The notes under the pieces: model-generated
Told to the model about the DNA's origin: nothing
Database searches by the model: none
The model's input: only the letters and a program-made list of their open reading frames with translations
Translations under genes and position numbers: made by a program
Origin: Planctomycetota bacterium
GTDB taxonomy: Bacteria; Planctomycetota; UBA11346
Assembly: GCA_041641915.1 (NCBI GenBank)
Contig: JBEPXK010000001.1
Span: forward strand, 1-26,344
Length of the DNA: 26,344 nucleotides
Reading direction: 5' to 3'
Part shown: piece after piece, positions 5,204 through 25,488 of the stretch
Layout of the letters: the number at the start of each line of letters is the position of its first letter
Numbering within the stretch: the first letter of the stretch is position 1

Positions 5204-7396
5204 TCAGCCAGCATCGGCGCGGCGCGGCGCGACCGGGCGCTTGCGACGCGGCCACAGCGCCCGGCATCGCCGTACAAGCGCCTCCGTGATCCGCTGACGA
5301 TGGCGCACCCACGGGCCGGCGGCGGCGACCACCACCAGGCCCAGGAGCGCGGCGTGGGCGGCGCAGATCGAGCCCAGCATCACCTCGCCCATCGCCCCTG
5401 CGCGCACCGGCTTGGCTCCGCCGCCGCTGCCGCCCGCGGCCTCGGCGATGAGGTAGGCGCGACCCAGCCCCGCGAGCAGCACGGTCAACAACCAGGCGCT
5501 ACCATCGCCCAGTGGCGTGAGCCAGCCCCCTGCACGGCCGTGATCGACCTCGCGCAGACCGGCAAAGAGCACTGGCAACAGCGCCACCCACGCCACTGGA
5601 GCCACCAAAGCGAGCCAGGGCATGCCGAACACCGCGTACACGGTGGCACCGAGGGCCAACGCCGACCAGGCCAGCGTGGCAGGCTCGAAACGCCGCCCGG
5701 CCGCCTCGTGCACCCGCACCACCCATATCGCCTGCAAGGCGAGGACCACCACCGGGATCCGCGCCAGCGAACGCAGGGCGAGCAGCAGATGGTCGTGGTC
5801 GAAGAGGATGTGCACCGCGAACGGGTCCTTGCGCGGGATCCACCAGGCCAGGTAGGCACAGGTACCCAACGCCGCGGCAGCGAGCACCGGCCAACGCGCG
5901 CTGCCGCTACCGACCAGATTGGCCACCAGCACCGCGACCCCCGCCGCCATCACAGCCTCGCTCCAGGCATCGCCCGTGCCGCCGTAGAAGGGACGCAGCA
6001 CGGCCAGGATCACGAAACCGGTCGGCAGGACCCAGATCATCCCGAGTTCTCGGTACCGCACGAAGGGGTAGAGCAGGGCCAATCCACCCGCGCCGCAGGA
6101 GAGCGCCAGTAGCGGCGGAGCCCCCAAGGCCCAAGTGGCCAGGGCCAGCAGGGTCGAAACCAGGACGGCGCCGAACGCGCTATGCGCAAGCATGCTCGCG
6201 GCGAGCGGCGCCACCAGCACCACCAGCACCGGCAGGACCCAGCCGGTGGTCAGATGCGGCCAGGTGGGATAGCTCAGGCTCAGCAAAGCGAGCGGCACCA
6301 GGTGCGAGGTCCGCAAGCCGCGGCGGCCGACGTCCACCACCGCCTCGGAGACCTGGGTGCGGACGGTCCGCCAGACCTCGCTCACCGGTCGATCACCGGG
6401 GACGGTCAGCGGCTCGACCCGCGGCAGGCTGGGCGTTCCCGGCTGCGCCTGCCCCCCGGCGATGCGGCCGGCGACCAGCAGCAGCAGGCAGATCGCGGCG
6501 CCGCCGGCAAGGGTGCTCAGCGCATGGCCGGCACCGGCCGGCACCAACAGCGCGACCACGGCCGCGACCACCGCGAAACCGAGCAGGCGCTCGGCGCTGA
6601 GCCACAGCTGCCCCCCCTGCGGCACGGTGCACAGCAGGCCAAGCACGCCACCGCCAGCCAGAATGAGGGCGGCCTGCATGCTCAGGTCCAGCACGGCCGG
6701 ACGGCCGCCGGGCCAGGGGCCGGTGGCCAGCGCGAGCAGCGTCAGCAGGGTCGCGAGCAGGAGGCCCGCCCCCACCGGCCAGAGGAAGGAGCGCCGGGCA
6801 CGCAGAACCGGCGGCAACAGATGGATCAGAGCGAGCCCGAACAGCAGCGCGGGACCGGCCCGTCCGAGGTCCGCGAGGGTCGGCGCCCGCAACGGCGAGC
6901 CCCCGGCGCCGGGGCCGAGCAGCAGCACCAGCGCCACACACCACACCAAACCTCCGCCGAGCAGCACCGGGCGTCCGTGCATCAGCAGCGGCAGCAGCGA
7001 CCACGGCAACAAGGACCAGGCAAGGATCTGCCGCGTTGGCGCCCCCCACAGCAACTCGGCGGTCGCCGCGAGCGGGAGCACGGTCACCACGGCGATGGTC
7101 AGCTGCAGCCGATCGCCAAGCGCGAGGCCAACGTAGGCCATGGCCAGCGCGGTGACGATCAGCGCCTGGCCGGGGCCGAACTGGACGGTGATCGACATCG
7201 CCAGCACCACCAGACCGCTGATGACGACGGCGAGCAGACCGAGGGCCCAGCGCGGCAGACGGGCAAACAGACTCCATACGCCGAGCGCCAAGCCGGTGGT
7301 CGCCAATGCGAACAGGCCGGTGCCCGGATGATCGCTGTGCACCAGCTGGGCCAGCATCGCGAGTGTCGCCAGAGCGTAAGCGGCCGCAGCGAACAT
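5204..7396 (-). CDS. Polytopic membrane protein of unknown function (730 aa, roughly 20 hydrophobic segments by eye)
   Basis: Nearly continuous Ala/Leu/Gly/Val hydrophobic segments. Start moved from 7564 to ATG 7396 (GGGGAGAG RBS; the upstream frame is Arg/Pro-rich and overlaps the divergent gene). Confidence 0.75.
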   Translation of the reverse strand: MFAAAAYALATLAMLAQLVHSDHPGTGLFALATTGLALGVWSLFARLPRWALGLLAVVISGLVVLAMSITVQFGPGQALIVTALAMAYVGLALGDRLQLTIAVVTVLPLAATAELLWGAPTRQILAWSLLPWSLLPLLMHGRPVLLGGGLVWCVALVLLLGPGAGGSPLRAPTLADLGRAGPALLFGLALIHLLPPVLRARRSFLWPVGAGLLLATLLTLLALATGPWPGGRPAVLDLSMQAALILAGGGVLGLLCTVPQGGQLWLSAERLLGFAVVAAVVALLVPAGAGHALSTLAGGAAICLLLLVAGRIAGGQAQPGTPSLPRVEPLTVPGDRPVSEVWRTVRTQVSEAVVDVGRRGLRTSHLVPLALLSLSYPTWPHLTTGWVLPVLVVLVAPLAASMLAHSAFGAVLVSTLLALATWALGAPPLLALSCGAGGLALLYPFVRYRELGMIWVLPTGFVILAVLRPFYGGTGDAWSEAVMAAGVAVLVANLVGSGSARWPVLAAAALGTCAYLAWWIPRKDPFAVHILFDHDHLLLALRSLARIPVVVLALQAIWVVRVHEAAGRRFEPATLAWSALALGATVYAVFGMPWLALVAPVAWVALLPVLFAGLREVDHGRAGGWLTPLGDGSAWLLTVLLAGLGRAYLIAEAAGGSGGGAKPVRAGAMGEVMLGSICAAHAALLGLVVVAAAGPWVRHRQRITEALVRRCRALWPRRKRPVAPRRADAG

Positions 7397-7542: not shown

Positions 7543-10257
7543 TTGGTAGACGTGCGCCCCGCAATGCAGGAGCACCAACAGCAGGCGAGTAATCGACCGG
7601 ACGCCCCAGGCGATCAGGCCGATGCCCCCCCGTCGGAAGGCCGACGGCAACGGTGCTTCACCCTCCGGGCGCTGACGCTCGGGGCGGTCCTGACCGTGGT
7701 CTTCGCCCTGATCACCCCCTGGAACGACTGGTTCCTCGAGAACACCTCGCTCTATCTCCACTATCTGCCGCCGGCGGTGCTGCTGGTCATCCTGGTCATG
7801 GTGCTGGTGGTCAATCCCCTGCTCGGCCGACGCCGGTTCGCGCAGGGAGAACTGGTGGTGGTGGTGGCGATGCTGCTGGCCCTCGGCGGCGTGGTCAGCA
7901 GCGGCCTGGTCCGCTACCTGCCCGGCATGATCACCCTGCCCGCGACCCGGCTCAAACCGGGCGGCACCTACGAACGACTGCGCGAACCGCTCGGTCCGGA
8001 GGACCAGGCCGCCGCGCGCGCGCGCTTTGAGCGCCACCTCGCACGCCGTTTCGCACGGCTGGATGCCGACGGCAACGATACACTCAGCCCCAACGAACTC
8101 GGCGACGCCAACGCGCTCGCCACCGCCGACAGCGACAACGATGGCGCCGTGTCGCTGCCCGAGTACCGCGCCCACATCCTGCAGCAGGATCCGGACGCCC
8201 TGCCCGACGCCCGCTGGGCGCTGCCGCACGAGCTCTTCCTCGGCATCCCCCCGGTGGGCACGATCGCGCGTGACGATCCCGAATACCGCTACGTGGTCGA
8301 AGGCTACCTCAACGGCCTCGCCACCGCCGCCCAGGACGACGTGCGCCACCGTGCGCGCGTCACCTGGACCGAAGACGGCCAGCGCAATCAGGGCGAGGCG
8401 CTCGCCGGGCGCACGGCGATCGACCGCGGCATCGCCGGCGACACCGGCTTCCTCGATCTGGAGACCAGCCGGGTCGGCCAGGCGCTGCGCGGGCTCGAAC
8501 CGGGCGACCGGACCACGGTGGATACCGGGCGCAGCCACACCGCTGGGCCCGGCGAGACCGTGGGCGCGATCGCCCAGCGCTATTACGGCGACCCGGCCGC
8601 GGCCCCGGCGCTGCGCGCGGCAAATCCGCAGCTCGGCCCGGACGCGCAACCGGCACCGGGCACCACGCTCACCGTGCCGGTCCGGCTCACGGTCGAGGCG
8701 GTCGCGGATCCGCCCACGCCCTATTGGGCCTGGGTGGACCCGCTGCTGGCCTGGGCGCCGCTGCTGCTCGGCGCCTTCATCGCATCGATCGCCACGGCCT
8801 TCGTCCTCCGCCGCCAATGGATCCACCACGAACGCCTGCCCTACCCCATCGGCCAGGTGATGCTCTCCCTGCTCGAGCCGGCGCCACCGCGTCGCTCGTT
8901 CAACGCGCTGTTCACCAACCACGGCTTCTGGGCCGGCTTCGTGATCGTCTTCCTGCTGGTGTTGTGGAACGGCCTGGCGCGCTGGGGCCTGGTCGAGGTC
9001 GGCTTCCAGACGGTGTTCGACTTCTATAACGGTCCCGACGCTCCGTTCCAGGGCAGCCCCTGGCGTCAGGCCTACCGTCCGGCATTCCTCTTCATCCCCC
9101 GGATCTCCTTCAGCATCATCGCCCTGACCTTCTTCCTCGCGCTCGACCTCAGCTTCAGCCTGTGGTTCGCCTTCGTCGCGATCAACATCCTGTTCCTCGT
9201 CTCCTACAGCAGCGGAATCCCGCTGCACAAGGCGGACGTGCAGCAGGCGGGCGTCGGCGGCTACGCGGTGATGTGTCTGCTGATCCTCTGGCTGGGGCGC
9301 TCCCACTACCTCGCCCTGTTGCGCGCGGCCTTCACCGGACGCGGCGACGAACAGACGCGGCGTACCGTCCCGTACGTCTGGGCGCTGATCATCGGCGCCG
9401 TGACCATGGTCCTTGCCCTGGTCAGCTACGGGGCGGGGCCCGGCGCGAGCACCCTGGCGGTGCTGCTGTTCCTCGGTTTCATGCTGGTGGTCAGCCGGAT
9501 CGTGGCCGAAACCGGGATCCCCTTCATCCAGGTGCCGAACGAATGGACCGTCAACAGCGTGCTCTTCAGCGCGGTGGGCTTCAGCATGCCCCCCTCGGCG
9601 CTGATGCCGCTGACCCTCATCGGCATCAGCCTGATGGCCGACACCCGCGAATCGCTGATGCCCTACGCGGTCCAGACCTCGTATCTCGCCGACCACAGCG
9701 GAGCACCACCACGCCGCACCGGTGCAGTCATGCTGGTGGTCGTCTGCATCGGGATGCTGATCGCCGGCGCCTCGATGCTACGCCATGCCTACAGCGGCGA
9801 CGGACCCAAAGACACCAGCTGGCCCGGCTATCTGCTCGAGACCCAGGCCTTGAAGAAGGTCGCCGGTGGCATCCGGACCGAGGAACGTGCCGCGACCGAC
9901 CACGCCGCCCACGCCCACCAGGAACGCCAACAGCAACGCACCTGGACCGCCTACGGTGCCGGCGCCGGTCTGGTCGCCACGCTCGGCGTGCTGCGGATGT
10001 TCTTCGCTTGGTGGCCGCTGCATCCGATCGGCTTCCTCGCCGCCACCTCCTACCCCGCCTGGCTGATGTGGTTCAGCTTCCTGCTCGGCTGGGCATGGAA
10101 GGCGGGGGTGATGCGCTATGGCGGCTCCGGCGCTTATCATCGGCTCAAGGCGGTGGCCATCGGCATGATCGCCGGCGAGATGACCGCGCTGATCCTCTTC
10201 ATCATACTCAAGATCGCCAACCCGGACCGTCTCGGCGCCCTACGGATCCTCGGATGA
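7543..10257 (+). CDS. DUF6785/DUF6784-like multi-TM membrane protein with inserted EF-hand pair, GreA-C-like and LysM domains
   Basis: N-terminal FTLRALTLGAVL...LPPAVLL...NPLL...GELVVV and C-terminal WWPLHPIG...WFSFLLGWAWKAGVMRYGG...Y recall DUF6785/DUF6784. EF loops at 8062-8097 and 8128-8163; LysM at 8536-8679. Start is TTG 7543 (GAGGA upstream) or ATG 7564. Confidence 0.75.
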   Translation: MVDVRPAMQEHQQQASNRPDAPGDQADAPPSEGRRQRCFTLRALTLGAVLTVVFALITPWNDWFLENTSLYLHYLPPAVLLVILVMVLVVNPLLGRRRFAQGELVVVVAMLLALGGVVSSGLVRYLPGMITLPATRLKPGGTYERLREPLGPEDQAAARARFERHLARRFARLDADGNDTLSPNELGDANALATADSDNDGAVSLPEYRAHILQQDPDALPDARWALPHELFLGIPPVGTIARDDPEYRYVVEGYLNGLATAAQDDVRHRARVTWTEDGQRNQGEALAGRTAIDRGIAGDTGFLDLETSRVGQALRGLEPGDRTTVDTGRSHTAGPGETVGAIAQRYYGDPAAAPALRAANPQLGPDAQPAPGTTLTVPVRLTVEAVADPPTPYWAWVDPLLAWAPLLLGAFIASIATAFVLRRQWIHHERLPYPIGQVMLSLLEPAPPRRSFNALFTNHGFWAGFVIVFLLVLWNGLARWGLVEVGFQTVFDFYNGPDAPFQGSPWRQAYRPAFLFIPRISFSIIALTFFLALDLSFSLWFAFVAINILFLVSYSSGIPLHKADVQQAGVGGYAVMCLLILWLGRSHYLALLRAAFTGRGDEQTRRTVPYVWALIIGAVTMVLALVSYGAGPGASTLAVLLFLGFMLVVSRIVAETGIPFIQVPNEWTVNSVLFSAVGFSMPPSALMPLTLIGISLMADTRESLMPYAVQTSYLADHSGAPPRRTGAVMLVVVCIGMLIAGASMLRHAYSGDGPKDTSWPGYLLETQALKKVAGGIRTEERAATDHAAHAHQERQQQRTWTAYGAGAGLVATLGVLRMFFAWWPLHPIGFLAATSYPAWLMWFSFLLGWAWKAGVMRYGGSGAYHRLKAVAIGMIAGEMTALILFIILKIANPDRLGALRILG

Positions 10258-11156
10258 ACGACCAGCCCAGCCGCCTCTTCGCCATCCACGGATTCTACTT
10301 CCGCATTCCCGCCACCTGGGAGCTGCGGGTGAACAAGGGCTACTGGGGCAACGGCTATGAGATGTTCATCGATCATCGCACGCCGACGCTCAACCTGACC
10401 TGGGAGCGCTTCAGCCGCACCCCGGACTACGACCGCACGGTCACGCGCATGGCCAAGCGCGCAACCCAACACAGCGACCTCAAGCTCACGCGTACCGACC
10501 CGCTCACCGGCACGCGTCAGGGCCGACGCGTGCGCCTGGAGGGCAGCGAAGGCGTGTTCCACGCCGCAGTGGTCCGGCCCGATCCGGACGTGAATCTGGT
10601 GCTGGTCATCCGCCAGATGCTCCCCGGTTCGGCGCTGCCGCTCAACCGCCTGATCGATAGCGTCAAGGCGCTGGGCGAAGACGCGCCCACCCCCTGGCGC
10701 TTCCACGGCCTGGCCCTGGACCTGCCGCCGTGGTGGCGCCTGCACGGGACCGAACACATGGTCGGGCTGACGCGTGCGGTCTGGTTCCATCGCCCCAAGA
10801 ACCGCCTCAAGACCGCCGGCGTGCTGGTATTACGGCGCTATGCCTGCGCCAGCCGCATCCTGCGCGAAACCACCATCGATCAGTGGGTCGAGGAGCGGCT
10901 GGAGAAGCGCGAGACAATGCGCCAACGCGCGTACGCCTCGGACGGTACCTTCTCCGCCATCGCGGACGCCCCGGGGCTTTCGCCATGGCGACGCCTGCGT
11001 GGCGTGCGCGAAGAACGGCATCTGGCCGCTTGGATCGAAGAAGGGGAAGACCGGCTCGTGATACAGGAATGGAAGGGAGCGGGACCGCCACTGCCGCTCT
11101 TGCGTTATCCGCAAGACCCCGAGGATGGTGCGCTTCCGCGAATGGAGAATACCTAG
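10254..11156 (+). CDS. Hypothetical 300-aa soluble protein with two PsbP/DcrB-like repeats
   Basis: ATGA overlap with the upstream gene (true start inside track ORF 9162..11156). Internal repeat LFAIHGFYFRIPATWEL / WRFHGLALDLPPWWRL; no signal peptide or TM seen. Confidence 0.75.
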   Translation: MNDQPSRLFAIHGFYFRIPATWELRVNKGYWGNGYEMFIDHRTPTLNLTWERFSRTPDYDRTVTRMAKRATQHSDLKLTRTDPLTGTRQGRRVRLEGSEGVFHAAVVRPDPDVNLVLVIRQMLPGSALPLNRLIDSVKALGEDAPTPWRFHGLALDLPPWWRLHGTEHMVGLTRAVWFHRPKNRLKTAGVLVLRRYACASRILRETTIDQWVEERLEKRETMRQRAYASDGTFSAIADAPGLSPWRRLRGVREERHLAAWIEEGEDRLVIQEWKGAGPPLPLLRYPQDPEDGALPRMENT

Positions 11157-11530
11157 TGTCCAACCCGGCGCGACTGGACGCCGAAACCGTCGCCGAGGCG
11201 GTCCCCCGATTGCGGGAGGATGTCACCGTCTCGCAGGCCCCGGATGGGGCGATCCGCCTGCGTAGCGCCGAGCTCCGTCGCACCCGGCTCGGATCGGTGT
11301 TGGCCTGGTTGTTCCGCCTGCCCCTGCGGATCGAAGTCGAGCTGGACGAGATCGGTAGTTGGGTCGTCGCCCGGATGGATGGGCGATCGATGCAGGATAT
11401 CGCCACCGATCTCGCCGCCGACCGCAAGCTCACACTGCGTGAAGCCGAAGCCGCACTGACCGTTTTCGTCCAGTCGCTGCTCGCCCGGCGGCTCCTCACG
11501 CTCGAAGGGTTGATCAGGAGTTGTGCATGA
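11156..11530 (+). CDS. PqqD-family (RiPP recognition element, RRE) protein, 124 aa
   Basis: GTG 11156 overlaps the upstream TAG; GGAG RBS. VELDEIGSWVVARMDGRSMQDIATDLAADRKLTLREAEAALTVFVQSLLARRLL matches the PqqD pattern (LDxxGxxIWxxxDGxxTVxEI...L...L). Confidence 0.85.
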   Translation: MSNPARLDAETVAEAVPRLREDVTVSQAPDGAIRLRSAELRRTRLGSVLAWLFRLPLRIEVELDEIGSWVVARMDGRSMQDIATDLAADRKLTLREAEAALTVFVQSLLARRLLTLEGLIRSCA

Positions 11531-13167
11531 CCGAGATGCCCGAAGACATCGCCAAACGCAAGCTGGCCATGCTGGGCAAGCCGCCGATCCTGCCACTGAG
11601 CGTCCCGGCGCGCGTCGCCTGGGGATCGATCCGCATCCGTCTCTCCCGCAGCCTGGTGACCGTCTCGTCGGTCATCCTCGCCGTGGCCTTTCTGCTCGTG
11701 GTGCTCGGTGAAAGCCTCAGCACCACCGCGGTCTACCACACCTACAAGCGCCAGAACCGGCCGTTGGAGCGGGTGCAGACCCTGCACGCGGTGCTCGAAC
11801 GCCCCCGCAAGCGCATCGAACTGCTGCGGCTGCTCGCCGAGCAACCCGATCAGACGCGCTCCTGGCTCGCGAGCCACGACCTCGACCTGCCGCCGGCCTA
11901 CGAACCGCGTCATGCCGTCGCCCTGCTGACCCTGGCCGAATGGGCCAACGAACTCCAGCCCATCGCCCGCTACAAGATGCTCGGCAATCGCGATACCGCC
12001 GACTGGCTGTTCTCGCTGACCAGCGCAGAGCGCACCGAACAGGTGATCGCCAAGGCCCGCACCATCAACAGCCGGGCGCTGCCCTTCGGCCAGGTCGAGC
12101 TGGCCAACCTCAGCGAGAAGGTGCCGCTGGTCGAACAGGCGGTAGCAGCCGCAGTCACGGTCGAACGCGCGCGTCATCGCACCGTGCAGGAAGCCGGCGG
12201 CTCGAAAGCGGTCCTGCGCGAGCTGCGCGACCAGGGCGACCGGGAAGCGGTGGCGGCCATGGGCCTGCCGCTGCACCAGGTCCTGCCCGAGCTCGACCAG
12301 GCGGGCATGCGCGAGTTGCGCAACGAACTGGCCTTTGAGCCCTTGCGCGACCAGGCGCAGGAGATCGTCGCCACCATCAACCGGGTGTTCTCGCGCCTGC
12401 GCCCGTTGGGCATCCTCGCCCTGGCCAACGAGGACCTGCTGCAGGAAGGCGAGGGCTACGCCGCCGAGCTGCGCGAGCTGCTTGGGGAGCAAACGGCAAA
12501 CCAGGCCATCGCCGCCCTGGTCGAGGAACGCAGCCTGAAGCCCCTGCAACAGGCGCTCACCCAAGCAGAGGATGACGAGAACGCGCGCAAGACCATCGAT
12601 GTGGGCATCTCGGCCGAAGCCCGCTCGCTGCTGCTGTGGAAGCTGGCCGACCAGTTGACTGCAGAAGAACGCGAGCAGCTCGAAGCCTTCCTCGCCGAAC
12701 ACCGCGCGCTGTTCAACCTGCGTGATACCTTCCTCGATATCGGCTTCGATCCCGAGGGCACCCAAGAGAAGACCTTCTGGCTGCTGGTGCTTTCGATGCT
12801 CGTGTGCATCGTCGGGATCGTCAATTCGATGATGATGGCGGTGACCGAGCGTTTCCTCGAGATCGCGACCATGAAATGCCTCGGGGCGATGGACAGCTTC
12901 ATCCTCAAGGCCTTCCTGATCGAATCGGGCACCGTCGGCCTGGCCGGCAGCGTCCTCGGCGCCGTGCTCGGCGTGGGCATCGTGCTGGTCCAGGCCTCGG
13001 CCCGCTTCGGCAGCATCTACTGGGCCAGTTTCCCCGCCGCCGACCTCGCCAAGGCCGCCGGCGCCGCGCTGGTGACCGGTCTGGTCCTGACCATCGTCGG
13101 CGCGCTGCTCCCGGCCTACAAGGCTGCGCGCATGCACCCCATCGAAGCAATGAGATTGGAAGCCTGA
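11527..13167 (+). CDS. MacB/FtsX-type ABC permease
   Basis: ATGA overlap. N-terminal RLSRSLVTVSSVILAVAFL TM, about 350-aa helical loop, FtsX domain VGIVNSMMMAVTERFLEIATMKCLGA...FLIESGTVGLAGSVLG with 3 TMs. Confidence 0.9.
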   Translation: MTEMPEDIAKRKLAMLGKPPILPLSVPARVAWGSIRIRLSRSLVTVSSVILAVAFLLVVLGESLSTTAVYHTYKRQNRPLERVQTLHAVLERPRKRIELLRLLAEQPDQTRSWLASHDLDLPPAYEPRHAVALLTLAEWANELQPIARYKMLGNRDTADWLFSLTSAERTEQVIAKARTINSRALPFGQVELANLSEKVPLVEQAVAAAVTVERARHRTVQEAGGSKAVLRELRDQGDREAVAAMGLPLHQVLPELDQAGMRELRNELAFEPLRDQAQEIVATINRVFSRLRPLGILALANEDLLQEGEGYAAELRELLGEQTANQAIAALVEERSLKPLQQALTQAEDDENARKTIDVGISAEARSLLLWKLADQLTAEEREQLEAFLAEHRALFNLRDTFLDIGFDPEGTQEKTFWLLVLSMLVCIVGIVNSMMMAVTERFLEIATMKCLGAMDSFILKAFLIESGTVGLAGSVLGAVLGVGIVLVQASARFGSIYWASFPAADLAKAAGAALVTGLVLTIVGALLPAYKAARMHPIEAMRLEA

Positions 13168-13174
13168 CCAACCG

Positions 13175-16100
13175 ATGCGCCATATCCGACATCTGCCCCG
13201 TCTCTGCTGCCTCCTGCTCGTCGCCACCGCCGCCACCGCGGTCGAACCGGCGCTCAGCCCCGACCTCGAGCGGGTCCGTGCGCATGCCGAGGCCCTCCTC
13301 GCCATCCCCGATCGCTCCATGGGCTCGCCCGGCGCCGATGCCGCCGCCGATCTCATCCGCGAGCGCCTCGACGCCCTCGGACTGGAGGCCGATCGCATAC
13401 GCGAGGCCCGGACCACGGTCACCGTCCCGGTCGATCACGGCAGTTCGCTGCGCGTCGCCGCCGAGGGCGGTGAGACCATCATCCAGCTCGCGCCGCATGT
13501 TCCCAATGGCGCAGCACTCAACACCACCGGCGGCGAGCCGATCACCGGCCCGCTGGTGATCCTCGGTCGTGGCGACGCCGCGGCGCTGCGCGCCCACGGC
13601 AAGGATTTGCCAGGCAGCATCGTGGTGCTCGATGGCGATTCCGGCGACGCCTGGCTCGACTGTGCCGAAATGGGCGCCCTGGCGGTCATCTTCCGCAAGA
13701 GCGAACGCATCGACCACCATCAGCTCACGCAGCAGTTCGTCACCGCCAGCCTCTCCTTCCCCCGCTTCGTCGGCGAAATCGACGACGCGCTCCAGGGCGC
13801 CGAGGCGACGCTGACCAGCACCGTGACCATGGAACGGCGCAACGTGCGCACCCTCTGCGCCCTGATCGAAGGCGAGATCGGCCAGCACACCGCGGTCCTC
13901 GCCAGCGGGTACGAAGCCGCTGGCCTGATCCCCGGCCACGATCCCGCCGCGACCCGCGCCTGGAACGCCGCGCTCCTGCTCGAACTCGGACGCCAATTCG
14001 CGGAGCATCCGCCACGCAACAACATCCTGCTGGTATTCCACGGCGGACGGGCCGAGCACTTCCGCGGTCTGCGCATGCTGCTCGCCAGCCTCAACGATCC
14101 GGCCCTGAGCCAGAACGAGAACACCACCGCGATCGAGGCCAAGCGCCTCGCACTGGATATCTGGCGTACCGAACAGGTCCGCCGGGCCTTCACCGCATTC
14201 CTCGACCAGACCGACGAAGCCTCGCCCGAAACCATCACCATCGCCAAACTCGAGGAATTGCTGCGCGCGATCAACGAGGATACCCTCGAACCCTTCCTCG
14301 AGGAGGACGAGCCGCAGGCGACCACCGCCACGATACCGGAAGCCGATGCCAAGCAGGTGCGTCGCGGGGTGGTCAATCGCATCCTGGCGGTGTTCTTCAC
14401 CGCCGGCCTGATGCTGGTGTTTTTCATCCGTTGGCGGACCGGCCGGCCGGGCTGGTTCCTGCTCACGGCGATCGCCATCGGCGGCGGACTGGTCATCTAC
14501 CAGCTGGTCGCACCGGTCGAACCGGAAACGATCGTGACCGAAGTGGCCGAGGAGCGCAAACAGGTCGAGGACCTCGGGCTCGCCTTCCTCTCCGAGGAGG
14601 CCGGTCGCCGGGCCGACCAGGAACAACCGGTGGTCGAACGTCTGCGCCTCTACACCAAACTGACCGAGAAACAGAAGGTCAGCGCGGAGAACCGGCTGCA
14701 GAGACTGCTGTTGCAGGAAGAACTCGAAGCCCTGCGCGGCGAGGCCCTGCCCAGCGACCGGGAGCGACTCGTGAAGCTGACCGCCGACCTCGGCGACCAC
14801 ATCCAGTTGATGCGCGACGTGCAGCAGAAGCTGGGCAAGATGGAGCTCAACGACCGCGAGGCCGCGGTGGTCCGCCCGATGATCCTCGATCTGCTCGGCG
14901 ATTCGGACGAGGCCGACACGATCATCGGCAGCCACCTGCGCACGCTGCGTCTGCGCCACCGCGACCTCCAGGATGCGCTCGCGATCCAAGAGATGGTCGG
15001 CCCGGGCCGCACCGCCCTACTGATCGGCTTCGACCTGACCGACGGCAACTGCGCCTTCTCCGCCGCGGTGCTCGGCTCGATCGCCGCCGCCGCCAAGAAG
15101 CTGACCTGGATCGGCAACGAGTGCCAGCGGGTGGCCCATGATCTGGACACCGATCACCTCGACGGCGCGCTCGCTTTCGACCCCTCCCCCTACGGCCAGC
15201 ACCACGGCAGCCCCACGGCGTGGTGGCCGCAATTCTACGCGCACGAGGCCGGCGTCGCCAACCTCTACCTCAACGCGCTGACCCTCTCGACGGTCAACGA
15301 CAAGCGCGCCAAGATCGGCACGCCCCAGGACACCGCCGCCGCCTTCGATACCGGAACCGGCGAGGGTCCGGGATATTTCGCCCGTCAGACCCGGGGCCTG
15401 ACCGCCCTGGTGCGCGACCTGGTCGAAAACACCAATTACACCAGCAAACGCCTCGACCTGGTCAAGAAGGGCCTGGCCTGGAAGACGGTCGAAATGCAGA
15501 CCGAGAGCCGCGGCAGCGCCACCGGCCTCAAGGGCTTCCCCTTCGGTGAGCTCCACGTCCAGGAAGGCCCGGCGCTGGGCTACTTCCCCGACGTGCGCCC
15601 GGTGCAGATCTTCTGGACCGACGCCTTCGGCAAGGTCACCGTCCCCTGGCTGCCGAACCAGCTCAACGAACCCAACCCCGGTACCTGGGCGCTGCTTCCC
15701 TTCGCCCACGATTCCGTCGGCCGGCTGACCCATGTGCTGACCGTCGGCAAGCAGAAGACCGCCGGGCTCAACGCGCAGGGCTTCGACGTCAAGGGCTCGC
15801 TGCGCGACATGCTCACGCAGGTCTTCGCCTGCCAGACCAGCCAGCTCTACAACCTGACCAATCCGCGTTCGATGATGCCGCTCAACGAGGTCCGGGTGCT
15901 CAGCTCCAGCCGTGACGCCCCACCCGATGCGAGCTATTTCGAGAGCGACGGCCAGGTCGCTGCCGTGTTCGCGACCAAGGGCACCCGCCTGCGCATCATC
16001 GCCCGCCAGGGCTCCGTCGGCCGCGAATACCTCCTGCTCGGCGACCACGAACAGGGCGACGAATTCCTCGGCCTGCGTCCCGGTGGCCCGTTGAACTCGG

Positions 16101-18928
16101 TGCTGGCACGCACGCTGCGCCCCAGCGTCGATCCCACCGCCGCGGCCGGGCAGACGGCCCAACCCGATCCCGCGCCGGAGGCCGACAGCGACGAGGAGCA
16201 ACCGGAGGCGAGCGACGGGCCGGCCGTGGCCGATCTGCCCGCGACCGCCGATAAAGACGCCATCCCGCTGGTGCTGGCCGAGCGCGCTGCTGCCCCTGCG
16301 GCCCTGGCGGTCGCCCAGGACTTCTTCCAGATCTGCCGCGCGCGGCTGGAGCGGCTGCAGCGCTTCGGGATCAACCCAGAGAGCCTGTGGGCGCTGCACG
16401 CCAAGGCCCAGTCCGAGCTCGACGAGGCCAAGCGGCTGCTCAAGGCCGGCGACGTCCAAGGCGCCGAAGGCGCAGCCGAGGCCGCCTGGTCGCTTGAGAA
16501 CCGGGTCTATCCCGCCCTGCTGGCAACCGCCAACGACGTGGTCTACGGCCTGGTGGTGATGCTGATTCTGGCCATCCCTTTCAGCATGATCTGCGAACGC
16601 CTGTTCGTCAGCGGCAACACCATTTTCACCAAGGTCGCGGGCTTCGGCGCCTTCTTCGTTGCCACCTTCCTGTTCTTCTTCTTCTTCCATCCCGCCTTCA
16701 GCCTGGCGGTGACGCCGATCATCATCTTCCTCGCCTTCGTGATCATCGTGATGAGCGTATTGGTGATCGGGATCATCTACCGCCAGTTCGAGGCCAGCAT
16801 GACCCAGATGCGCATGCAGGGGCTGGGCATGCACCGGGCCGACGTCAACCGTCTGGGCACCCTGCTGGCCACCGGTCAACTCGGCATCAGCAACATGCGC
16901 CGGCGTCCGTTGCGCACCTTCCTCACCGCAACCACCGTGGTGCTGATGACCTTCATCCTGCTGACCTTCGCCGGTTTCGGCAGCAAGGCTGGGATCCGCC
17001 AGCAGGACCTCGAGGTCGCGCCGGCCTACAACGGCATTTTCCTCTCGCAGCCCGGCTGGCTGCCCTTCGCCGAGAACAGCGTGGATCGCACCGTCAACAC
17101 CTGGGACCGCGACCTGCACGTCTTCCCCCGGCGATGGCTGATGGCCGGCGTCGACGTCCCCCGCTTCGATATCAACCACCCCGAGGGCGACGAACCGACC
17201 TCGCTCATGGGTGTGGTCGGCGTCGATCCCGGCGACCCCTCGGGCGCCGAACGCTCCGCCCTGCGCGTGTGGTTCGAAGACGGCGAACGTCACACCGCCA
17301 CCGGTTTCGCGAGCGACGAGGACTGGATCTTCCTGCCCCAGCGCCTGATCGACAACTCGGGCTATCGCGAGGGCGATAGCATCCCCTTCCAGGGCCAGCG
17401 CCTGCGCCTCGGCGTGCTGCAACAGACTGGCGACGATGCTTTCACCAAAGTCACCCATCTCGACGGCAGCCCCTTCACCCCGCTGGCGCCCGAGGCGATG
17501 GACGAGGAACAGCGCAAGCACTTCCAGGAGATGAAGAAGCAGGCGGCCGAAGGCGGCGAGGTGGTGGTCGAATCAACTTCGCTGACCCACCTCGATGCCG
17601 ATCAGGTCGCCCTGACCTCCAATGCGGTGCTCGCGCGACTGGGAGCCGAAATCCGTTCGATCGCGATGGTGCCGTGGACGGATGCAGCCCGCCAACAGCA
17701 GCGCGATCCCGAGCGACATCTGCCCGCCGAGCTCGCCGATCTCGACGAACTCGGCGCCGAGGTCACCAATCAGCTCGCACTCAGCGTCCTGCTCGGCAAC
17801 AAGGGCAAGACGCATCGGATGACCGCGGTCGGCCAGCTGGCCATCGGCGGTCTGGCCGACGTGCTCATCCCGCTGATTCTCGGCGGCATGATCATCTATT
17901 CGACCATGCTCGGATCGGTGGCCGAACGTGGGAAGGAGATCTTCATCTACTCCTCGCTCGGTCTGGCTCCGATCCATATCGCGGCGCTGTTCCTGGTCGA
18001 GGCGACCATCTACGCGGTGATCGGTGGCATGGGCGGATACATCGTCGCGCAGATGCTCATCGCCTTGCTCGGCTTCCTCGCCGATGTCGGGCTGCTCGCG
18101 ACCCAGCCCGACATCAACTATTCGAGCTTCACCGCGGTGATCACCATCCTGCTGGTCATGGCCACGGTCCTGCTCTCAGCGCTCTACCCGGCCTTCGTCG
18201 CCTCGCGGGCGGCCAATCCCGGCACCGAGCGCCGCTTCCGCGTTCCGCAACCCGACGGTGACGACCTCGACATCGAATTCCCGTTCACCGTCGCCGCGCG
18301 CGATATCCGCGGTCTGCTCGCCTACCTGAAGACCTTCATGGATGCCAACACCGAAGCCTCGACCGGCTGCTTCACCGCCGCCGATGCCGAGATGGTCGCC
18401 GATGGCGACATCTTCGCCGTGCTGGCCAGGACCTGGCTGGCGCCGTTCGATCTCGGCATCAGCCAGACCTTCCGCATGACCGCCAAGCCGACGGACATGA
18501 AGGCCATCTACAGTATCCACATCTCGCTGCATCTGCTCTCCGGCCAGCGCAGTGCCTGGCGTCGGGTGACCATCCCCTTCATCCAGGAGCTGCGGCAGCA
18601 GTTCCTGGTCTGGCGGACCCTCGATGAGCAGACCACCGATCGCTACCGCGCCGCCGGTGGCGACCCCGATGCCGCGCAGCGGGTGGCCGAACATGAGCGC
18701 GAGGCCGCAGTCCAACGGGTCCAGGCCGAGAAGGACATGAAACACCACCATCGCCGCGGCGGGCCGGAAACCAAACCGGCCGCAGACGACGCGGAACAGC
18801 CCGAAGACAAGCCGGCAGCACACAAGGTCGAAGGGGTCGCCGACACCGACGACGCGGCGCCTCCACAAGCAGCGCCACCCCCCGAGGAGGTCGAAGGTGA
18901 TGAGCAGCGCAAAGGAGGGCGGTCATGA
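13175..18928 (+). CDS. 1917-aa fusion: signal peptide, degenerate M28 peptidase/PA-like region, extra TMs, MacB/FtsX permease, C-terminal cytoplasmic domain
   Basis: Sec signal MRHIRHLPRLCCLLLVATAATA. M28-like scaffold around AVLASGYE, NAALLLELGR, ILLVFHGG, IGFDLTDG, GTPQDT. MacB TM1 ISNMRRRPLRTFLTATTVVL; FtsX YSTMLGSVAERGKEIFIYSSLGL...FLVEATIYAVIGG. Confidence 0.85.
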   Translation: MRHIRHLPRLCCLLLVATAATAVEPALSPDLERVRAHAEALLAIPDRSMGSPGADAAADLIRERLDALGLEADRIREARTTVTVPVDHGSSLRVAAEGGETIIQLAPHVPNGAALNTTGGEPITGPLVILGRGDAAALRAHGKDLPGSIVVLDGDSGDAWLDCAEMGALAVIFRKSERIDHHQLTQQFVTASLSFPRFVGEIDDALQGAEATLTSTVTMERRNVRTLCALIEGEIGQHTAVLASGYEAAGLIPGHDPAATRAWNAALLLELGRQFAEHPPRNNILLVFHGGRAEHFRGLRMLLASLNDPALSQNENTTAIEAKRLALDIWRTEQVRRAFTAFLDQTDEASPETITIAKLEELLRAINEDTLEPFLEEDEPQATTATIPEADAKQVRRGVVNRILAVFFTAGLMLVFFIRWRTGRPGWFLLTAIAIGGGLVIYQLVAPVEPETIVTEVAEERKQVEDLGLAFLSEEAGRRADQEQPVVERLRLYTKLTEKQKVSAENRLQRLLLQEELEALRGEALPSDRERLVKLTADLGDHIQLMRDVQQKLGKMELNDREAAVVRPMILDLLGDSDEADTIIGSHLRTLRLRHRDLQDALAIQEMVGPGRTALLIGFDLTDGNCAFSAAVLGSIAAAAKKLTWIGNECQRVAHDLDTDHLDGALAFDPSPYGQHHGSPTAWWPQFYAHEAGVANLYLNALTLSTVNDKRAKIGTPQDTAAAFDTGTGEGPGYFARQTRGLTALVRDLVENTNYTSKRLDLVKKGLAWKTVEMQTESRGSATGLKGFPFGELHVQEGPALGYFPDVRPVQIFWTDAFGKVTVPWLPNQLNEPNPGTWALLPFAHDSVGRLTHVLTVGKQKTAGLNAQGFDVKGSLRDMLTQVFACQTSQLYNLTNPRSMMPLNEVRVLSSSRDAPPDASYFESDGQVAAVFATKGTRLRIIARQGSVGREYLLLGDHEQGDEFLGLRPGGPLNSVLARTLRPSVDPTAAAGQTAQPDPAPEADSDEEQPEASDGPAVADLPATADKDAIPLVLAERAAAPAALAVAQDFFQICRARLERLQRFGINPESLWALHAKAQSELDEAKRLLKAGDVQGAEGAAEAAWSLENRVYPALLATANDVVYGLVVMLILAIPFSMICERLFVSGNTIFTKVAGFGAFFVATFLFFFFFHPAFSLAVTPIIIFLAFVIIVMSVLVIGIIYRQFEASMTQMRMQGLGMHRADVNRLGTLLATGQLGISNMRRRPLRTFLTATTVVLMTFILLTFAGFGSKAGIRQQDLEVAPAYNGIFLSQPGWLPFAENSVDRTVNTWDRDLHVFPRRWLMAGVDVPRFDINHPEGDEPTSLMGVVGVDPGDPSGAERSALRVWFEDGERHTATGFASDEDWIFLPQRLIDNSGYREGDSIPFQGQRLRLGVLQQTGDDAFTKVTHLDGSPFTPLAPEAMDEEQRKHFQEMKKQAAEGGEVVVESTSLTHLDADQVALTSNAVLARLGAEIRSIAMVPWTDAARQQQRDPERHLPAELADLDELGAEVTNQLALSVLLGNKGKTHRMTAVGQLAIGGLADVLIPLILGGMIIYSTMLGSVAERGKEIFIYSSLGLAPIHIAALFLVEATIYAVIGGMGGYIVAQMLIALLGFLADVGLLATQPDINYSSFTAVITILLVMATVLLSALYPAFVASRAANPGTERRFRVPQPDGDDLDIEFPFTVAARDIRGLLAYLKTFMDANTEASTGCFTAADAEMVADGDIFAVLARTWLAPFDLGISQTFRMTAKPTDMKAIYSIHISLHLLSGQRSAWRRVTIPFIQELRQQFLVWRTLDEQTTDRYRAAGGDPDAAQRVAEHEREAAVQRVQAEKDMKHHHRRGGPETKPAADDAEQPEDKPAAHKVEGVADTDDAAPPQAAPPPEEVEGDEQRKGGRS

Positions 18929-20922
18929 GCAAGGCCCTCGCTGATAAGGAACTCAACCAATATCGCGACCTCATCCAGCCACCGGGCTATTTCGAGGAGG
19001 GCTTCACCTGGCGCACATTGCTGGGCACCGTCTTCGTCGGCGTGGTCATGCTGCCGGCGGCGATGTACATGCACCTGATGATCGGCAGCATCAGCCTGGC
19101 CCCCGCGGCCAAGTGGGTGACGGTCATCCTGTTCCTCGAGATCGCCAAGCGCGCCCGCAGCTTCCTCAAGCCGGCCGAGCTGCTGGTGTTGATGAGCCTG
19201 ATCACTGCCTTTGTCGGCACCACGCCGATCGAGGGTTTCTTCTGGAAACAGTACGTCGTCCAAAGCGATGCGGCCCGATCATTCGGGCTTGAAGGCTTGT
19301 TCCCAGACTGGTACGCGCCGACGAGCGAAGAGGTGCTCGATCGGCGGTCGTTCTTCCAGGCGGAATGGGTGTTGCCGATCGTGCTGATCTTCCTGCAGCA
19401 GGCGATCGGACGCGCCGACAGTCTGATCCTCGGTTACGGCTTGTTCCGCCTTACCAGCGACGTGGAGAAGCTCCCCTTCCCCATGGCCCCCCTCCAGGCT
19501 TCGGGCATCCTCGCACTCTCCGAGGACACCACCGCCAAGGATGGCTGGCGCTGGCGCTGCTTCTCGATCAGCGCCTCGATCGGTATGATCTTCGGCCTGC
19601 TCTACATCGCCATTCCCACGATCACCAGCACCTTCCTCGATGAACCGTTCCAGATATTCCCCATCCCCTGGTTGGATACGACCCAGGCGACCCAGGAGGT
19701 GTTGCCGGCGACGGCCACGGGCATCAGTTTCGATCTGAGCAACTTCTTCTTCGGCATGGCCTTCCCGTTCTTCGCCGTGCTCGGCAGCTTCATCGGGCTG
19801 CTGGTGACCTTCATCGCCAACCCCGCGCTGCACGACGCCGGCATCCTGCATACTTGGAAGCCGGGCATGAGCACAGTCGAAACCATGTTCGCCGACAACA
19901 TGGACTTCTACCTCTCCTTCGGTATCGGCCTCTCGGCGGCGGTGGCGGTGATCGGCTTGGCCCAGACCTTCGGCAAGGTGCGCAAGGCCAAGGCACGCGG
20001 GCCGACCCTCGACGTGGCCGAGAAGCCGAAGGTGACCAAGGTCCAGGGCGTCTCGCGCGGGGACATCCGCACCGTGACCATTCTCCTCGCCTACCTCGTC
20101 TCCTGCAGCGCCTACATCGTGATCAGTGGCGTGTTGCTCGACTGGGATTTCGGCGGTGGCGGCGCCCTGCTCTGGGTCCTGCTGTTCTTCGCCTTCATCT
20201 ACGTCCCCTTCATCAGCTACACCACCGCCCGTCTCGAAGGCCTCGCCGGCCAGGTCATCGCGCTACCGATGGTCAAGGAGGCGGCGTTCATCCTCTCCGG
20301 CTATCAGGGCATCCAGTGCTGGCTGCTACCGATCAGCTGGCACCACAACTACGGCATCGACACGGTGCAATACCGCGTTGCCGAACTGGTCGGCTGTTCC
20401 TTCCGTTCGATCTGGAAGGCCAAGGCGGTGCTGTTGCCGACGGTGTTCCTGTTCTCGCTGATCTACGGTCAGTTCATCTGGAGCCTCGGCCCGATTCCCA
20501 GCGCCAAGTACCCCTTCGCCCAGGAGATGTGGGATCTGCACGCCCGCAACCAGATCCTGATCTGGACCTCGACCATGGGCGGCTACAGCCCCTTCATGGA
20601 CGCCATCAACGGCTTCTACATCGCCGCTGGCGGCGTCATGGGGTTGGTGGTCTACACCACCCTGTCCGCCTTCGGCCTGCCGATGCTGCTGCTCTACGGC
20701 ACGGTCAAGGGACTGGGGCAGACGCTGCCGCAGATGGTGGTGACCCAGATGCTCGGTGCGCTGTTCGGGCGCTTCGTCATGGCCAAGAAGTTCGGCCCCG
20801 ACCGCTGGCGTCAGTACGCCATCGTCCTCTCGGCCGGCTTCGGCTGCGGCACCGGACTGATCATGATGTTCTCCACCGGCGTGCGTTTCCTCGCGTCCGC
20901 CGTCTACCAGAAACCGTTCTGA
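18925..20922 (+). CDS. OPT/YSL-like multi-TM putative peptide transporter
   Basis: ATGA overlap. Many TM segments; FEEGFTWRTLLGTVFVGVVMLPAAMY and EKLPFPMAP recall OPT-superfamily patterns (FTxRA..., LPFP). Confidence 0.7.
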   Translation: MSKALADKELNQYRDLIQPPGYFEEGFTWRTLLGTVFVGVVMLPAAMYMHLMIGSISLAPAAKWVTVILFLEIAKRARSFLKPAELLVLMSLITAFVGTTPIEGFFWKQYVVQSDAARSFGLEGLFPDWYAPTSEEVLDRRSFFQAEWVLPIVLIFLQQAIGRADSLILGYGLFRLTSDVEKLPFPMAPLQASGILALSEDTTAKDGWRWRCFSISASIGMIFGLLYIAIPTITSTFLDEPFQIFPIPWLDTTQATQEVLPATATGISFDLSNFFFGMAFPFFAVLGSFIGLLVTFIANPALHDAGILHTWKPGMSTVETMFADNMDFYLSFGIGLSAAVAVIGLAQTFGKVRKAKARGPTLDVAEKPKVTKVQGVSRGDIRTVTILLAYLVSCSAYIVISGVLLDWDFGGGGALLWVLLFFAFIYVPFISYTTARLEGLAGQVIALPMVKEAAFILSGYQGIQCWLLPISWHHNYGIDTVQYRVAELVGCSFRSIWKAKAVLLPTVFLFSLIYGQFIWSLGPIPSAKYPFAQEMWDLHARNQILIWTSTMGGYSPFMDAINGFYIAAGGVMGLVVYTTLSAFGLPMLLLYGTVKGLGQTLPQMVVTQMLGALFGRFVMAKKFGPDRWRQYAIVLSAGFGCGTGLIMMFSTGVRFLASAVYQKPF

Positions 20923-20943: not shown

Positions 20944-21756
20944 ATGACCGAAGACACCCACGACCCGCAGGCGATCTACCAGACCTACTGGGACCCGGAG
21001 CACGTTTCCGACCACGGCGACTATGCTCGGGGCAAGGAAGTCATCGTCCGCGCCCGCGATGTGAAGAAAATCTACAAGGCGGAGACCGACAACCCGGTGC
21101 ACGCCCTGCGCGGGATCACGATGGAGATCTACACCGGCGAATACCTCGCCATCATGGGTCCCTCCGGCTCGGGCAAGTCGACCTTCTTCAATGCCATCGG
21201 CGGTCTGGACAAGCCCACCTCCGGGCAGGTCTACATCGACGAGGTCGACATCGCCCAGCTCGACCCCAAAGAGCTGGCCTGGCTGCGGTGCCGCAAAATC
21301 GGCTACATCTTCCAGAGCTACAACCTGATCACGGTGATGACGGCGATGGAAAACATCATGTTGCCGATGACCTTCGCCGCGACCCCCGCCGACGAGGCAC
21401 GCGAGAAGGCTTTCGAGCTCTGCCGCCTGGTCGGCATCGACCACCGCGCCGACAACAAGCCGGCCGAACTCTCCGGTGGTCAGCAGCAGCGCGTGGCCAT
21501 CGCCCGCGCGTTGGCCAACGACCCGGCTATCATCCTCGCCGACGAGCCGACCGCTAACCTCGACTTCCGCACCGGCAAGGAGATCATCGAGCTGATGGTC
21601 AAGCTCAAGCAGGAGAAAGGCGTGACCGTGATCTCCGCGACCCACGACCACGAGATGCTCGCCATTTCCGATCGGATCATGTGGATCCGCGACGGTCAGG
21701 TCGATCGGGTCGAGTTGCAGAAGGACCTCAAGATCCAGAAGGGCAGCATCGAGTAG
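20944..21756 (+). CDS. ABC ATPase, LolD/MacB/FtsE type
   Basis: Walker A GPSGSGKST, Q-loop GYIFQSYNL, signature LSGGQQQRVAIARAL, Walker B ILADEPT, H-loop SATHD. Confidence 0.95.
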   Translation: MTEDTHDPQAIYQTYWDPEHVSDHGDYARGKEVIVRARDVKKIYKAETDNPVHALRGITMEIYTGEYLAIMGPSGSGKSTFFNAIGGLDKPTSGQVYIDEVDIAQLDPKELAWLRCRKIGYIFQSYNLITVMTAMENIMLPMTFAATPADEAREKAFELCRLVGIDHRADNKPAELSGGQQQRVAIARALANDPAIILADEPTANLDFRTGKEIIELMVKLKQEKGVTVISATHDHEMLAISDRIMWIRDGQVDRVELQKDLKIQKGSIE

Positions 21757-24700: not shown

Positions 24701-25488
24701 CGCACGCCGGGCGGCACCTCTTCCGGACGCGCAGCGGCGGCGAGCCCCCAGTCCATCAGATAGACCTCACCGAAATCACCGAGCATGATATTACTCGGTT
24801 TCAGATCACGGTGGATCACCCCCCGCGAATGGGCGAAGGCCACGGCGTTGCTGACCGCCAACAGGATCTCGAGGTTCTCGCTGATCGGGCGCCGGGCGAA
24901 ATCCAGCGACCACGGCCGGCCAGCGACCCGCTTCATCGCGTAGTAGAGGTCTCCCCCGGGGCTGTGGCCCAGATCGTAGAGCGGCGGGATGTTCGGGTGC
25001 TCGAGGTCGGCCGTGACCGCAGCCTCGCCGAGGAAGGCCTCGCGGCTGGTGGTGCCCTCGCGCAGCTCTTCTTTGAGCACCTTGAGCGCCACGATCCGGT
25101 CACAGCTCGTCTGCCGCGCCGCCAGCACCACGCCCATGCCGCCGGCACCGAGCTGATCGAGCAACTCGTAGTGGTGGGTTGGCTCGCCGGAGTCCTCTGT
25201 ACCATCCCGGTCGCCAACCGGAGGCCCGAAACTCCCCTCCCGCGGGCGCACCGAAACCGTCCCCCCGGCGCTCGATCCGAGCGATCGTCGCTGGTGCCCG
25301 CCGAGGGTCACCGTGGCGTTCGTACAGCCTTTGGGGATCGCTTCGGCCCAGCCCGGTCCGACCGCCGTCGGCGCGACCGGCGGCCGCGACGCGGCGGCAC
25401 GAGTCGCCCCTTGTTGATCGATCGCATAGTCGCCCCGTTGCGGCGACGACGGGTCGGGTTTGTCGCAGTCGGGCTCAGCGGGCATCAT
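21778..25488 (-). CDS. Hanks-type Ser/Thr kinase with TM, TPR repeats and C-terminal CBM9-like (DOMON-like) domain
   Basis: LGAGGMGVV, VALKVL, HRDLKPSN, DWGLA, GTPAYMAPE; TM AAAILAAAVCVVVAVAFF; TPR-like repeats (LGPDHR/LGAGHP/LGPDHH); APVIDGRDDDAVW...DDAVEV...WVMEWSVPWRALG. Start 25488 or 25485. Confidence 0.9.
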   Translation of the reverse strand: MMPAEPDCDKPDPSSPQRGDYAIDQQGATRAAASRPPVAPTAVGPGWAEAIPKGCTNATVTLGGHQRRSLGSSAGGTVSVRPREGSFGPPVGDRDGTEDSGEPTHHYELLDQLGAGGMGVVLAARQTSCDRIVALKVLKEELREGTTSREAFLGEAAVTADLEHPNIPPLYDLGHSPGGDLYYAMKRVAGRPWSLDFARRPISENLEILLAVSNAVAFAHSRGVIHRDLKPSNIMLGDFGEVYLMDWGLAAAARPEEVPPGVRPKAVALTQKNVTGGTPAYMAPEMAQADIARIGVRSDVYLLGAILFEIVTGQRPHRGSSVMECLAKAASNAIVPVDADGELIRIAYRAMATDPADRYADARAFAAAIRDYQAHAESLVLTDEAEAHAKTARSDGRYEDYARALFAYEEAVALWQENQRARAGMSVLRVAYARSAFTHGDLELAQSLLNEEGEDQADFRAEVGAALRQREIHARRLRLMTRAAAILAAAVCVVVAVAFFRIQHERALALAARDEARAQRDKAAVAEAVARTESANVKVINAFLQDMLESADPARMGLDVSVLEVLEAASARAQRTVAHSPELQQQLHLTLGSTFAALSRFEQAQEHLERALAADSAGSGAFDLLVRQRLGALKLQQFHLREAEELLAAVLVEQLARLGPAQGEVITTRRLLVQTAIEAGRLVQAGPALAQLHEAAAAVADLPFDERVAIDLLRGRWLYLTGQRKRAAAVHREARALCERELGPHHPQTMDCRLRAIEHLHEAGEHALVLEELEGFCREQAAHAGEQDVMLLAARVLRGRAYYWRGAFARAEKELRAVRTASLQQLGPDHRIAIDCAIALAAVLDDDAALDLVNETRVRCERMLGAGHPLTIECLVRAGKVHYGRGRLDAAVAAFDTAIDRGSRTLGPDHHEVLVARAYRAQCVGQTRELEQAVEELRELEQRIHTRTGDDHPPRILALSMLADLEWRRGHLAQMLGLLAEATQLARRRFSPGQWLRHKLERRLEESLQLVRKLRRVNCAAIAADATAPVIDGRDDDAVWRHEHRFRAYDAWGLLDRDDYTHPPVDAWATLVADAQRLYGVVRCPVVGGEVPSCTVDTRDGAVWQDDAVEVRWQPQGVAAAVRLVVNAAGVVTDLRGEDPDFTLADVRVACGRDAAGWVMEWSVPWRALGFDERPAEGTTVPFDLIRYHRAEPVFVSRWQQLDPQRPALEQFGRLQVGKWTPDPALESWRKRRRQR

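Follow-up and report, generated by a model that had tools for sequence, protein, structure and literature searches.

The window, the whole stretch of DNA analysed here, is an entire 26.3-kb contig (C1) of a 4.67-Mb MAG that is 85% complete. It carries seven co-directional genes, A to G, between positions 7543 and 21756. These genes and the two short features within them that matter for what follows are listed below.

7543-10257, + strand: A, first gene of the coupled operon, polytopic protein of 904 aa with DUF6785 and DUF6784 (PF20581, E 5.5e-71; PF20580, E 1.1e-22)
10254-11156, + strand: B, partner protein of 300 aa with tandem Mog1/PsbP-like domains, basic (pI 9.9) and cytoplasmic (AF2, fold search, co-occurrence)
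11156-11530, + strand: C, cytoplasmic protein of 124 aa with the PqqD/RRE fold (PF05402, profile versus PDB, AF2 model, TfuB1 match)
11285-11314, + strand: in C, residues 44-53, subfamily-specific hydrophobic helix between β2 and β3 (DSSP of the model, alignment)
11527-13167, + strand: D, FtsX-type permease of 546 aa (PF02687, E 5.9e-15)
11575-11598, + strand: in D, residues 17-24, motif G-K-P-P-I-L-P-L of the cytoplasmic N-terminal tail, a candidate RRE ligand (alignments of cassette FtsX N termini)
13175-18928, + strand: E, giant permease of 1917 aa with an exported N-terminal domain and an FtsX domain near the C terminus (PF02687 at residues 1567-1678)
18925-20922, + strand: F, OPT-superfamily polytopic protein of 665 aa (homology to a PF03169-annotated protein)
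20944-21756, + strand: G, ABC ATPase of the LolD/MacB type, 33-aa N-terminal extension (PF00005, E 8e-35)

The junctions within the operon are ATGA overlaps (A/B, C/D, and E/F), a TAGTG overlap (B/C), and gaps of 7 nt (D/E) and 21 nt (F/G). The TAG stop codon of B and the GTG start codon of C have one base in common, and the stop codon of C overlaps the ATG of D, which bears out the earlier statement that the gene is translationally coupled on both sides. A GGAG sequence lies 8 nt upstream of the GTG. The neighbouring gene has an orthologue, 92% identical, that NCBI labels Planctomycetota.

D and E each have an FtsX domain (PF02687) and G has an ABC ATPase domain (PF00005); the operon encodes a type VII (MacB/FtsX) ABC system. 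The best NCBIfam matches of G are LolD/MacB models that fall below their equivalog cut-offs (220.7 bits against the LolD model, cut-off 307.75), and PADLOC returned generic ABC and FtsX matches and no defence system. F has no Pfam match; BLASTP aligns it end to end (E 3e-25) with a protein annotated as OPT (PF03169) at a distant locus, L032. The same locus encodes a giant protein of about 1464-1474 aa with M28, MacB_PCD, and FtsX domains, to which E is related overall (phmmer, E 6.8e-76). The exported N-terminal 408 aa of E (13175-14398) are homologous to the Peptidase_M28-annotated domain of that giant and have no M28 match in Pfam even at E≤1, so this domain is strongly diverged.

Housekeeping genes are among those flanking the operon. 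On the minus strand, a highly hydrophobic polytopic protein of 730 aa without a Pfam match is encoded divergently from the operon (5204-7396), and the gene for a TPR-containing Ser/Thr protein kinase of 1236 aa (21778-25488) converges on G at a distance of 22 nt. No such kinase was seen beside the cassette in relatives.

Fold of C and the search for a RiPP context

C matches PF05402 over residues 61-114 with 25.2 bits (gathering cut-off 23.4; E 2e-5). This is the only PF05402 match in the whole MAG, and homologues of C reach 54.5 bits against the same model. A word-indexed search with C recovered no sequence except C itself; an exhaustive HMMER search yielded 136 cluster representatives (50% clustering level, E≤1e-3), nearly all of them 100-180 aa long and matched over their full length. 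When a profile built from 50 of these homologues was compared with the PDB, it found PqqD (3g2b, E 2e-8) and the lasso B1 proteins 9x90_B (E 8.5e-8) and TbiB1 (E 2.4e-6), and all matches to solved structures with E≤0.01 were PqqD or lasso B1. The AF2 model of C (pLDDT 91.4) has the three-stranded sheet and three-helix winged-helix fold and superposes on TfuB1 (6jx3_B) with Z 12.1 and an rmsd of 1.5 Å (84/85 residues aligned), and on TbiB1 with Z 11.8. C is thus confirmed as a real PqqD-like gene, as observed in the initial annotation, which was also right that it encodes no signal peptide; a transmembrane segment is likewise absent (maximum KD19 1.14).

Because RREs share a winged helix-turn-helix architecture, and wHTH domains from non-RiPP proteins turn up as weak matches in the fold search with C, we considered that it might be a DNA-binding regulator of the operon. 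This is extremely improbable: the only transcriptional regulator in the profile-versus-PDB list has an E value of 0.96, the pI of C is 6.3, and the gene sits in the middle of the operon, with coupling to both of its neighbors and, in some lineages, fusion to B.

The subfamily differs from solved relatives in one respect. TfuB1 and TbiB1 lack the hydrophobic helix (~20 residues) that is conserved in C and its homologues between β2 and β3, where the 50-sequence alignment shows an 'LA.....P' block. The TfuB1 alignment places its 84 residues within residues 15-116 of the C model and skips the extra-helix segment, and the alignment with PqqD from the PDB begins past it. This extra helix (residues 44-53) might lie near the peptide groove and could even fill it in cis; if so, the RRE may bind no peptide.

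RRE/PqqD domains are used to flag gene clusters for peptide natural products, whatever their class. C is not accompanied by the precursor and leader-dependent enzyme that would identify it as a biosynthetic RRE. Pfam and NCBIfam scans of the window found no radical SAM, YcaO, lasso, or other RiPP enzyme, and the operon has no slot for a precursor ORF, since adjacent genes either overlap or are separated by just 7 or 21 nt; the earlier report of neither enzyme nor precursor in the 26 kb therefore stands. A modifying enzyme was also absent from the 30 loci of the phylum and the other contexts that we examined. Because no examined locus encodes one, genome miners would score these enzyme-free PqqD loci as false positives.

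C could still be a genuine RiPP chaperone acting in trans, with precursor and enzyme encoded elsewhere in the genome. The whole-genome search for SPASM proteins that had been recommended found three, all on contigs other than the window. The protein on C68 was identified, with 475.6 bits, as an anaerobic sulfatase maturase. The second (genome G000, contig C802, 307-1455, locus L004) is a PapB-like radical SAM/SPASM protein with a score of 191 bits, below the cut-off, and the third (C219, 3017-4129) is an unassigned radical SAM/SPASM protein resembling peptide maturases. Both lie on short contigs, lack an N-terminal RRE of their own, and show no co-distribution with PqqD. The maturase-like protein on C802 is a candidate enzyme for such a chaperone; its homologue was found in 1 of 24 genomes of the family, a PqqD non-carrier, and in 0 of the 13 family carriers, and we rejected it as a trans-acting partner of C.

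The other candidate enzymes are no better placed. No YcaO was found in the genome; the best PqqE match in this 85% complete assembly scores 61.5 bits against a cut-off of 381, so that C is not assigned to a PQQ pathway; and the search for a lasso B2 protease (PF13471) found only a generic transglutaminase (PF01841) on another contig, which as a protein is under the PF13471 cut-off. A RiPP cluster elsewhere that would account for C in all carriers of the operon, which the initial annotation had named as a refutation of its reading, is thus not seen in the searches for the C802 SPASM protein, YcaO, PqqE, and transglutaminases. Together with the synteny of the B-PqqD pair with FtsX/ABC genes across phyla, these results make a RiPP function in trans very unlikely.

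A constant partner and a conserved cassette

The initial annotation had called the PqqD-like protein stand-alone. It is a separate ORF, but it is not alone: the gene directly upstream, which had been overlooked, encodes its constant partner. B has no family match in Pfam, NCBIfam, or PADLOC. Its AF2 model (pLDDT 90.3) consists of two beta-rich domains, and fold comparison identified the alpha-beta-alpha sandwich of Mog1/PsbP-like proteins. The N-terminal domain matches 3hlz with Z 12.3 and both Mog1 (5yfg) and CyanoP (2xb3) with Z 11.9 (126-141 residues); more broadly, Z is 10-12 to BT_1490, Mog1, CyanoP, and TplEi, 9.2 to DcrB, and 9.1 to the Eag chaperone SciW. The C-terminal domain resembles the fold less strongly (Z 7.8). 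The tandem domain arrangement is also that of TplEi, a T6SS immunity protein.

The invariant residues of B are chiefly tryptophans and glycines, and the predicted fold is a binding, non-enzymatic one. Mog1/PsbP-like proteins are a very broad superfamily, so the match tells little about function. B shares the fold of its N-terminal domain with the Mog1/PsbP/DcrB/DUF1795 (Eag chaperone) superfamily (Z 9-12) and differs in having no sequence family match, in being cytoplasmic and basic, and in being found with an RRE and an ABC engine rather than in a T6SS or photosystem context. Co-folding of B and C as a complex scored 0.01, under the mark, in a single run without controls, and so speaks neither for nor against binding.

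Eight or more genera of the family share the arrangement B-C-D-E-F-G, with protein identities of 30-60%. In a sample of 301 genomes from the phylum, the C subfamily occurs in 63, about a fifth of the Planctomycetota sampled. Of the 30 best loci in this sample, 28 have B immediately before PqqD and 29 have an FtsX gene immediately after it, as a rule with an ABC ATPase gene next in line. The two loci without a neighboring B belong to one genus (g5), in which B is on another contig. Since B, FtsX, and ABC ATPase genes flank PqqD at most of these loci, the common form is a four-gene cassette, B-PqqD-FtsX-ABC, and the window holds an expanded form of it.

A profile of B detected it in 36 genomes, all among the 63 carriers of the PqqD subfamily, and in 0 of 238 non-carriers. 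The 36 is a lower bound, as the first filter overlooked at least one carrier (G025) in which a local HMM detects B, and kinship among the 301 genomes makes these co-occurrence counts descriptive rather than a statistic. The two proteins are also found fused, with the RRE at the C terminus, in P0033 (E 3e-29), in P0138 (24% identity over 276 aa), and as one 472-aa frame in G158; in the AFDB entry A0A651H3X0, a 'PqqD family protein', residues 1-277 have the B fold. B is an obligate partner of C.

Seven more contexts, from genomes or metagenomes beyond the phylum sample, all have PqqD next to genes for FtsX, an ABC ATPase, an OPT-like protein, or a giant permease; in two of the seven it stands between two ATPase genes, and one is on a contig whose neighboring genes look archaeal. 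Clusters that look like B are present in other phyla. The assignment of the RRE to a transporter and not to a RiPP pathway, as first suggested, is accordingly backed by synteny, co-occurrence, and fusions.

Several loci depart from the common arrangement. At L032 (GCA_037917685.1, JAVCBU010000012.1, 10001-19399), a PqqD-subfamily gene stands beside the genes for the OPT protein, the M28+MacB_PCD+FtsX giant, and an OPT/DUF6785 protein. Other genes on that contig look archaeal (NFACT, EMC6, prefoldin, DUF2116), and no B homologue was detected on it. At L073 (3868-4275) and L074 (400-825), PqqD lies between two ABC ATPase genes with no adjoining B. Such an arrangement hints that the ATPases pair as heterodimers and that PqqD is linked to the part of the engine that binds nucleotide. 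Two genomes of family f57 have open frames of 548 aa (L064, 2837-4480) and 561 aa (L065, 2504-4186), both on the minus strand, with a PqqD-like domain at the C-terminal end. Their N-terminal ~410 aa match no Pfam family and not the B profile; these frames may have a different fusion partner or may merely be long GC-rich open frames.

A B-PqqD pair detached from transport genes occurs in genome G039 (L026, contig C33, 6947-8347), between a HisF-like gene and a gene for a 647-aa protein with an adenylate/guanylate-cyclase domain. No FtsX or ABC genes lie within ~10 kb of it, and a second B-PqqD pair is present in the same genome on contig C77.

Proposed role of the B-PqqD pair at the ABC engine

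The data establish an RRE fold for C, a link between C and both B and the FtsX/ABC genes, and the lack of any modifying enzyme. Our preferred explanation, to which we give a probability of about 0.5, is that the PqqD protein and B form a conserved cytoplasmic two-protein accessory of a MacB/FtsX-type (type VII) ABC engine, with the RRE clamping a part of the machine. Genomic context and predicted folds point to such an accessory. That C is, in the broader sense, a non-RiPP accessory of an ABC machine, paired with B, is probable; the specific mechanism of a tail clamp or regulator is tentative.

The RRE would keep its usual activity, holding a short extended peptide segment beside strand β3 and helix α3, and would most plausibly clamp the conserved cytoplasmic N-terminal tail of FtsX (G-K-Q-I-x-L-P-like); alternatively, it might bind a cytoplasmic peptide signal. 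Either way, B would be tethered to the engine and the ATPase cycle tuned, and no RiPP leader would be presented to an enzyme. In the window, the engine is expanded by the giant FtsX permease with its M28-related exported N-terminal domain and by two OPT-fold/DUF6785 membrane proteins. Against this explanation stand the detached pair in G039, which shows that the pair can exist away from ABC genes, the lineages with PqqD between two ATPase genes and no B nearby, and the extra helix of C, should it fill the groove.

Type VII ABC systems (MacB, LolCDE, FtsEX) work by mechanotransmission on substrates outside the cytoplasm, and their substrates take no path through the membrane domain. Because these engines act on extracytoplasmic substrates, a cytoplasmic RRE is more likely to be a tether or regulator than a cargo receptor. 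The earlier proposal of a cytoplasmic substrate-recognition adaptor holds for the link to the transporter; substrate recognition fits poorly with an engine of this type.

The ligands first put forward, the N termini of the ATPase and the OPT-like protein, were not sustained. The N-terminal extension of G is missing from the ATPases of minimal cassettes that keep PqqD. In F, conservation of the first ~20 residues does not extend beyond the family, and such minimal cassettes have no F at all. On the basis of N-terminal alignments, the tail of the FtsX permease is the better candidate. In cassettes elsewhere, including distant ones, the FtsX N terminus has a motif like G-K-Q-I-x-L-P-W/L/F, and in PqqD-linked permeases this tail precedes the usual amphipathic helix, at which two unlinked FtsX paralogues of the same genome, lacking the tail, directly begin. 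This control within the genome comprised six FtsX-like frames, of which two were usable as unlinked and stand-alone, too few for a test. For RREs of the PqqD/lasso group, binding to W/Y/L-x-x-P/L/I motifs is reported (PMC12710340). The tail is a reasonable candidate ligand because it travels with PqqD, is absent from the two paralogues, and can be read against the motifs bound by this RRE group. DevC-type permeases begin with a similar P-L-A-W, so the motif may be generic. The conserved C-terminal P-L-x-x-L tail of B is another candidate ligand suggested by sequence conservation.

Other functions for the pair are conceivable outside RiPP biosynthesis. B-PqqD could deliver substrate, capturing a ribosomal peptide or protein tail and handing it to the ABC/OPT machine for export without modification. 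RRE folds bind peptides, a peptide theme runs through the operon in its OPT-superfamily proteins and M28-related domain, and the fold superfamily of B (Mog1/PsbP/DUF1795) includes SciW; Eag chaperones hold effector segments ahead of secretion. Nevertheless, such delivery is unlikely, given the extracytoplasmic substrates and missing transmembrane path of type VII systems, the minimal B-PqqD-FtsX-ABC cassettes that have no OPT-like channel, and the fact that no conserved small ORF fits the operon. A related and more doubtful possibility is that the pair is a cytoplasmic receptor that reads a short motif in a ribosomally made peptide or protein and either passes this ligand to an OPT-fold channel powered by the ABC engine or gates that channel. 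If true, this would be leader-dependent peptide handling without a modification enzyme and the first RRE serving as a transporter subunit.

B and the RRE might instead be an assembly chaperone that holds hydrophobic or extended segments of FtsX or of the giant permease before insertion and stays outside the mature machine. The resemblance of B to SciW and DcrB and the conservation of the FtsX N-terminal tail and TM1 beside the B-PqqD pair are in keeping with this idea. The close translational coupling of the pair within the operon and its recurrent fusions speak for a stoichiometric partner instead, and the fold match of B, to so broad a superfamily, carries little functional weight. We consider such a chaperone improbable.

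An accessory of the ABC engine, our preferred explanation, would set the pair apart from the closest known systems. C resembles PqqD and lasso B1 proteins (TfuB1, TbiB1) in fold and in detectable sequence homology, and like them it is a small stand-alone protein that is either split from or fused to its partner. Unlike them, it has no precursor peptide, radical SAM enzyme, protease, or cyclase as partner; its constant partners are the non-enzymatic Mog1/PsbP-fold protein B and an FtsX/ABC engine, and the C-terminal position of the RRE in the B-PqqD fusions is a further difference. The engine in turn resembles MacAB-TolC, LolCDE, and FtsEX-EnvC in that FtsX-fold permeases are encoded together with a LolD/MacB-like ATPase and that a permease bears a large extracytoplasmic domain.

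To our knowledge, none of the described type VII ABC systems has a cytoplasmic RRE or a Mog1/PsbP accessory, and we know of none among MacB, Lol, and FtsEX for which a module that controls or docks the engine from the cytoplasm is described. The OPT-fold/DUF6785 partners and the giant M28-related permease likewise lie outside the type VII systems known to us. Our literature searches found no report linking PqqD with FtsX, none mentioning DUF6785, and for PqqD with MacB unrelated genome reports only; a survey of RREs (PMC12710340) does not mention permeases. RREs and type VII ABC systems are themselves known, and we found no paper on the recruitment of an RRE as a transporter subunit or accessory, which appears to be new. 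The initial annotation's interpretation is, on the whole, partly supported, and the finding suggests that type VII ABC engines can have a cytoplasmic module for control or docking. As a small soluble pair, B-PqqD offers a handle for the pull-down of a large, widespread, and unstudied membrane machine.

The DUF6785 protein encoded at the start of the operon has a feature of its own. Residues ~164-224 and 332-379 of A form an inserted region with weak EF-hand/lanmodulin-like matches (NF053806, E 3.4e-6, far under the cut-off) and a weak LysM-like match (E 0.0025), sequence hints of calcium or cell-wall binding on an exposed loop.
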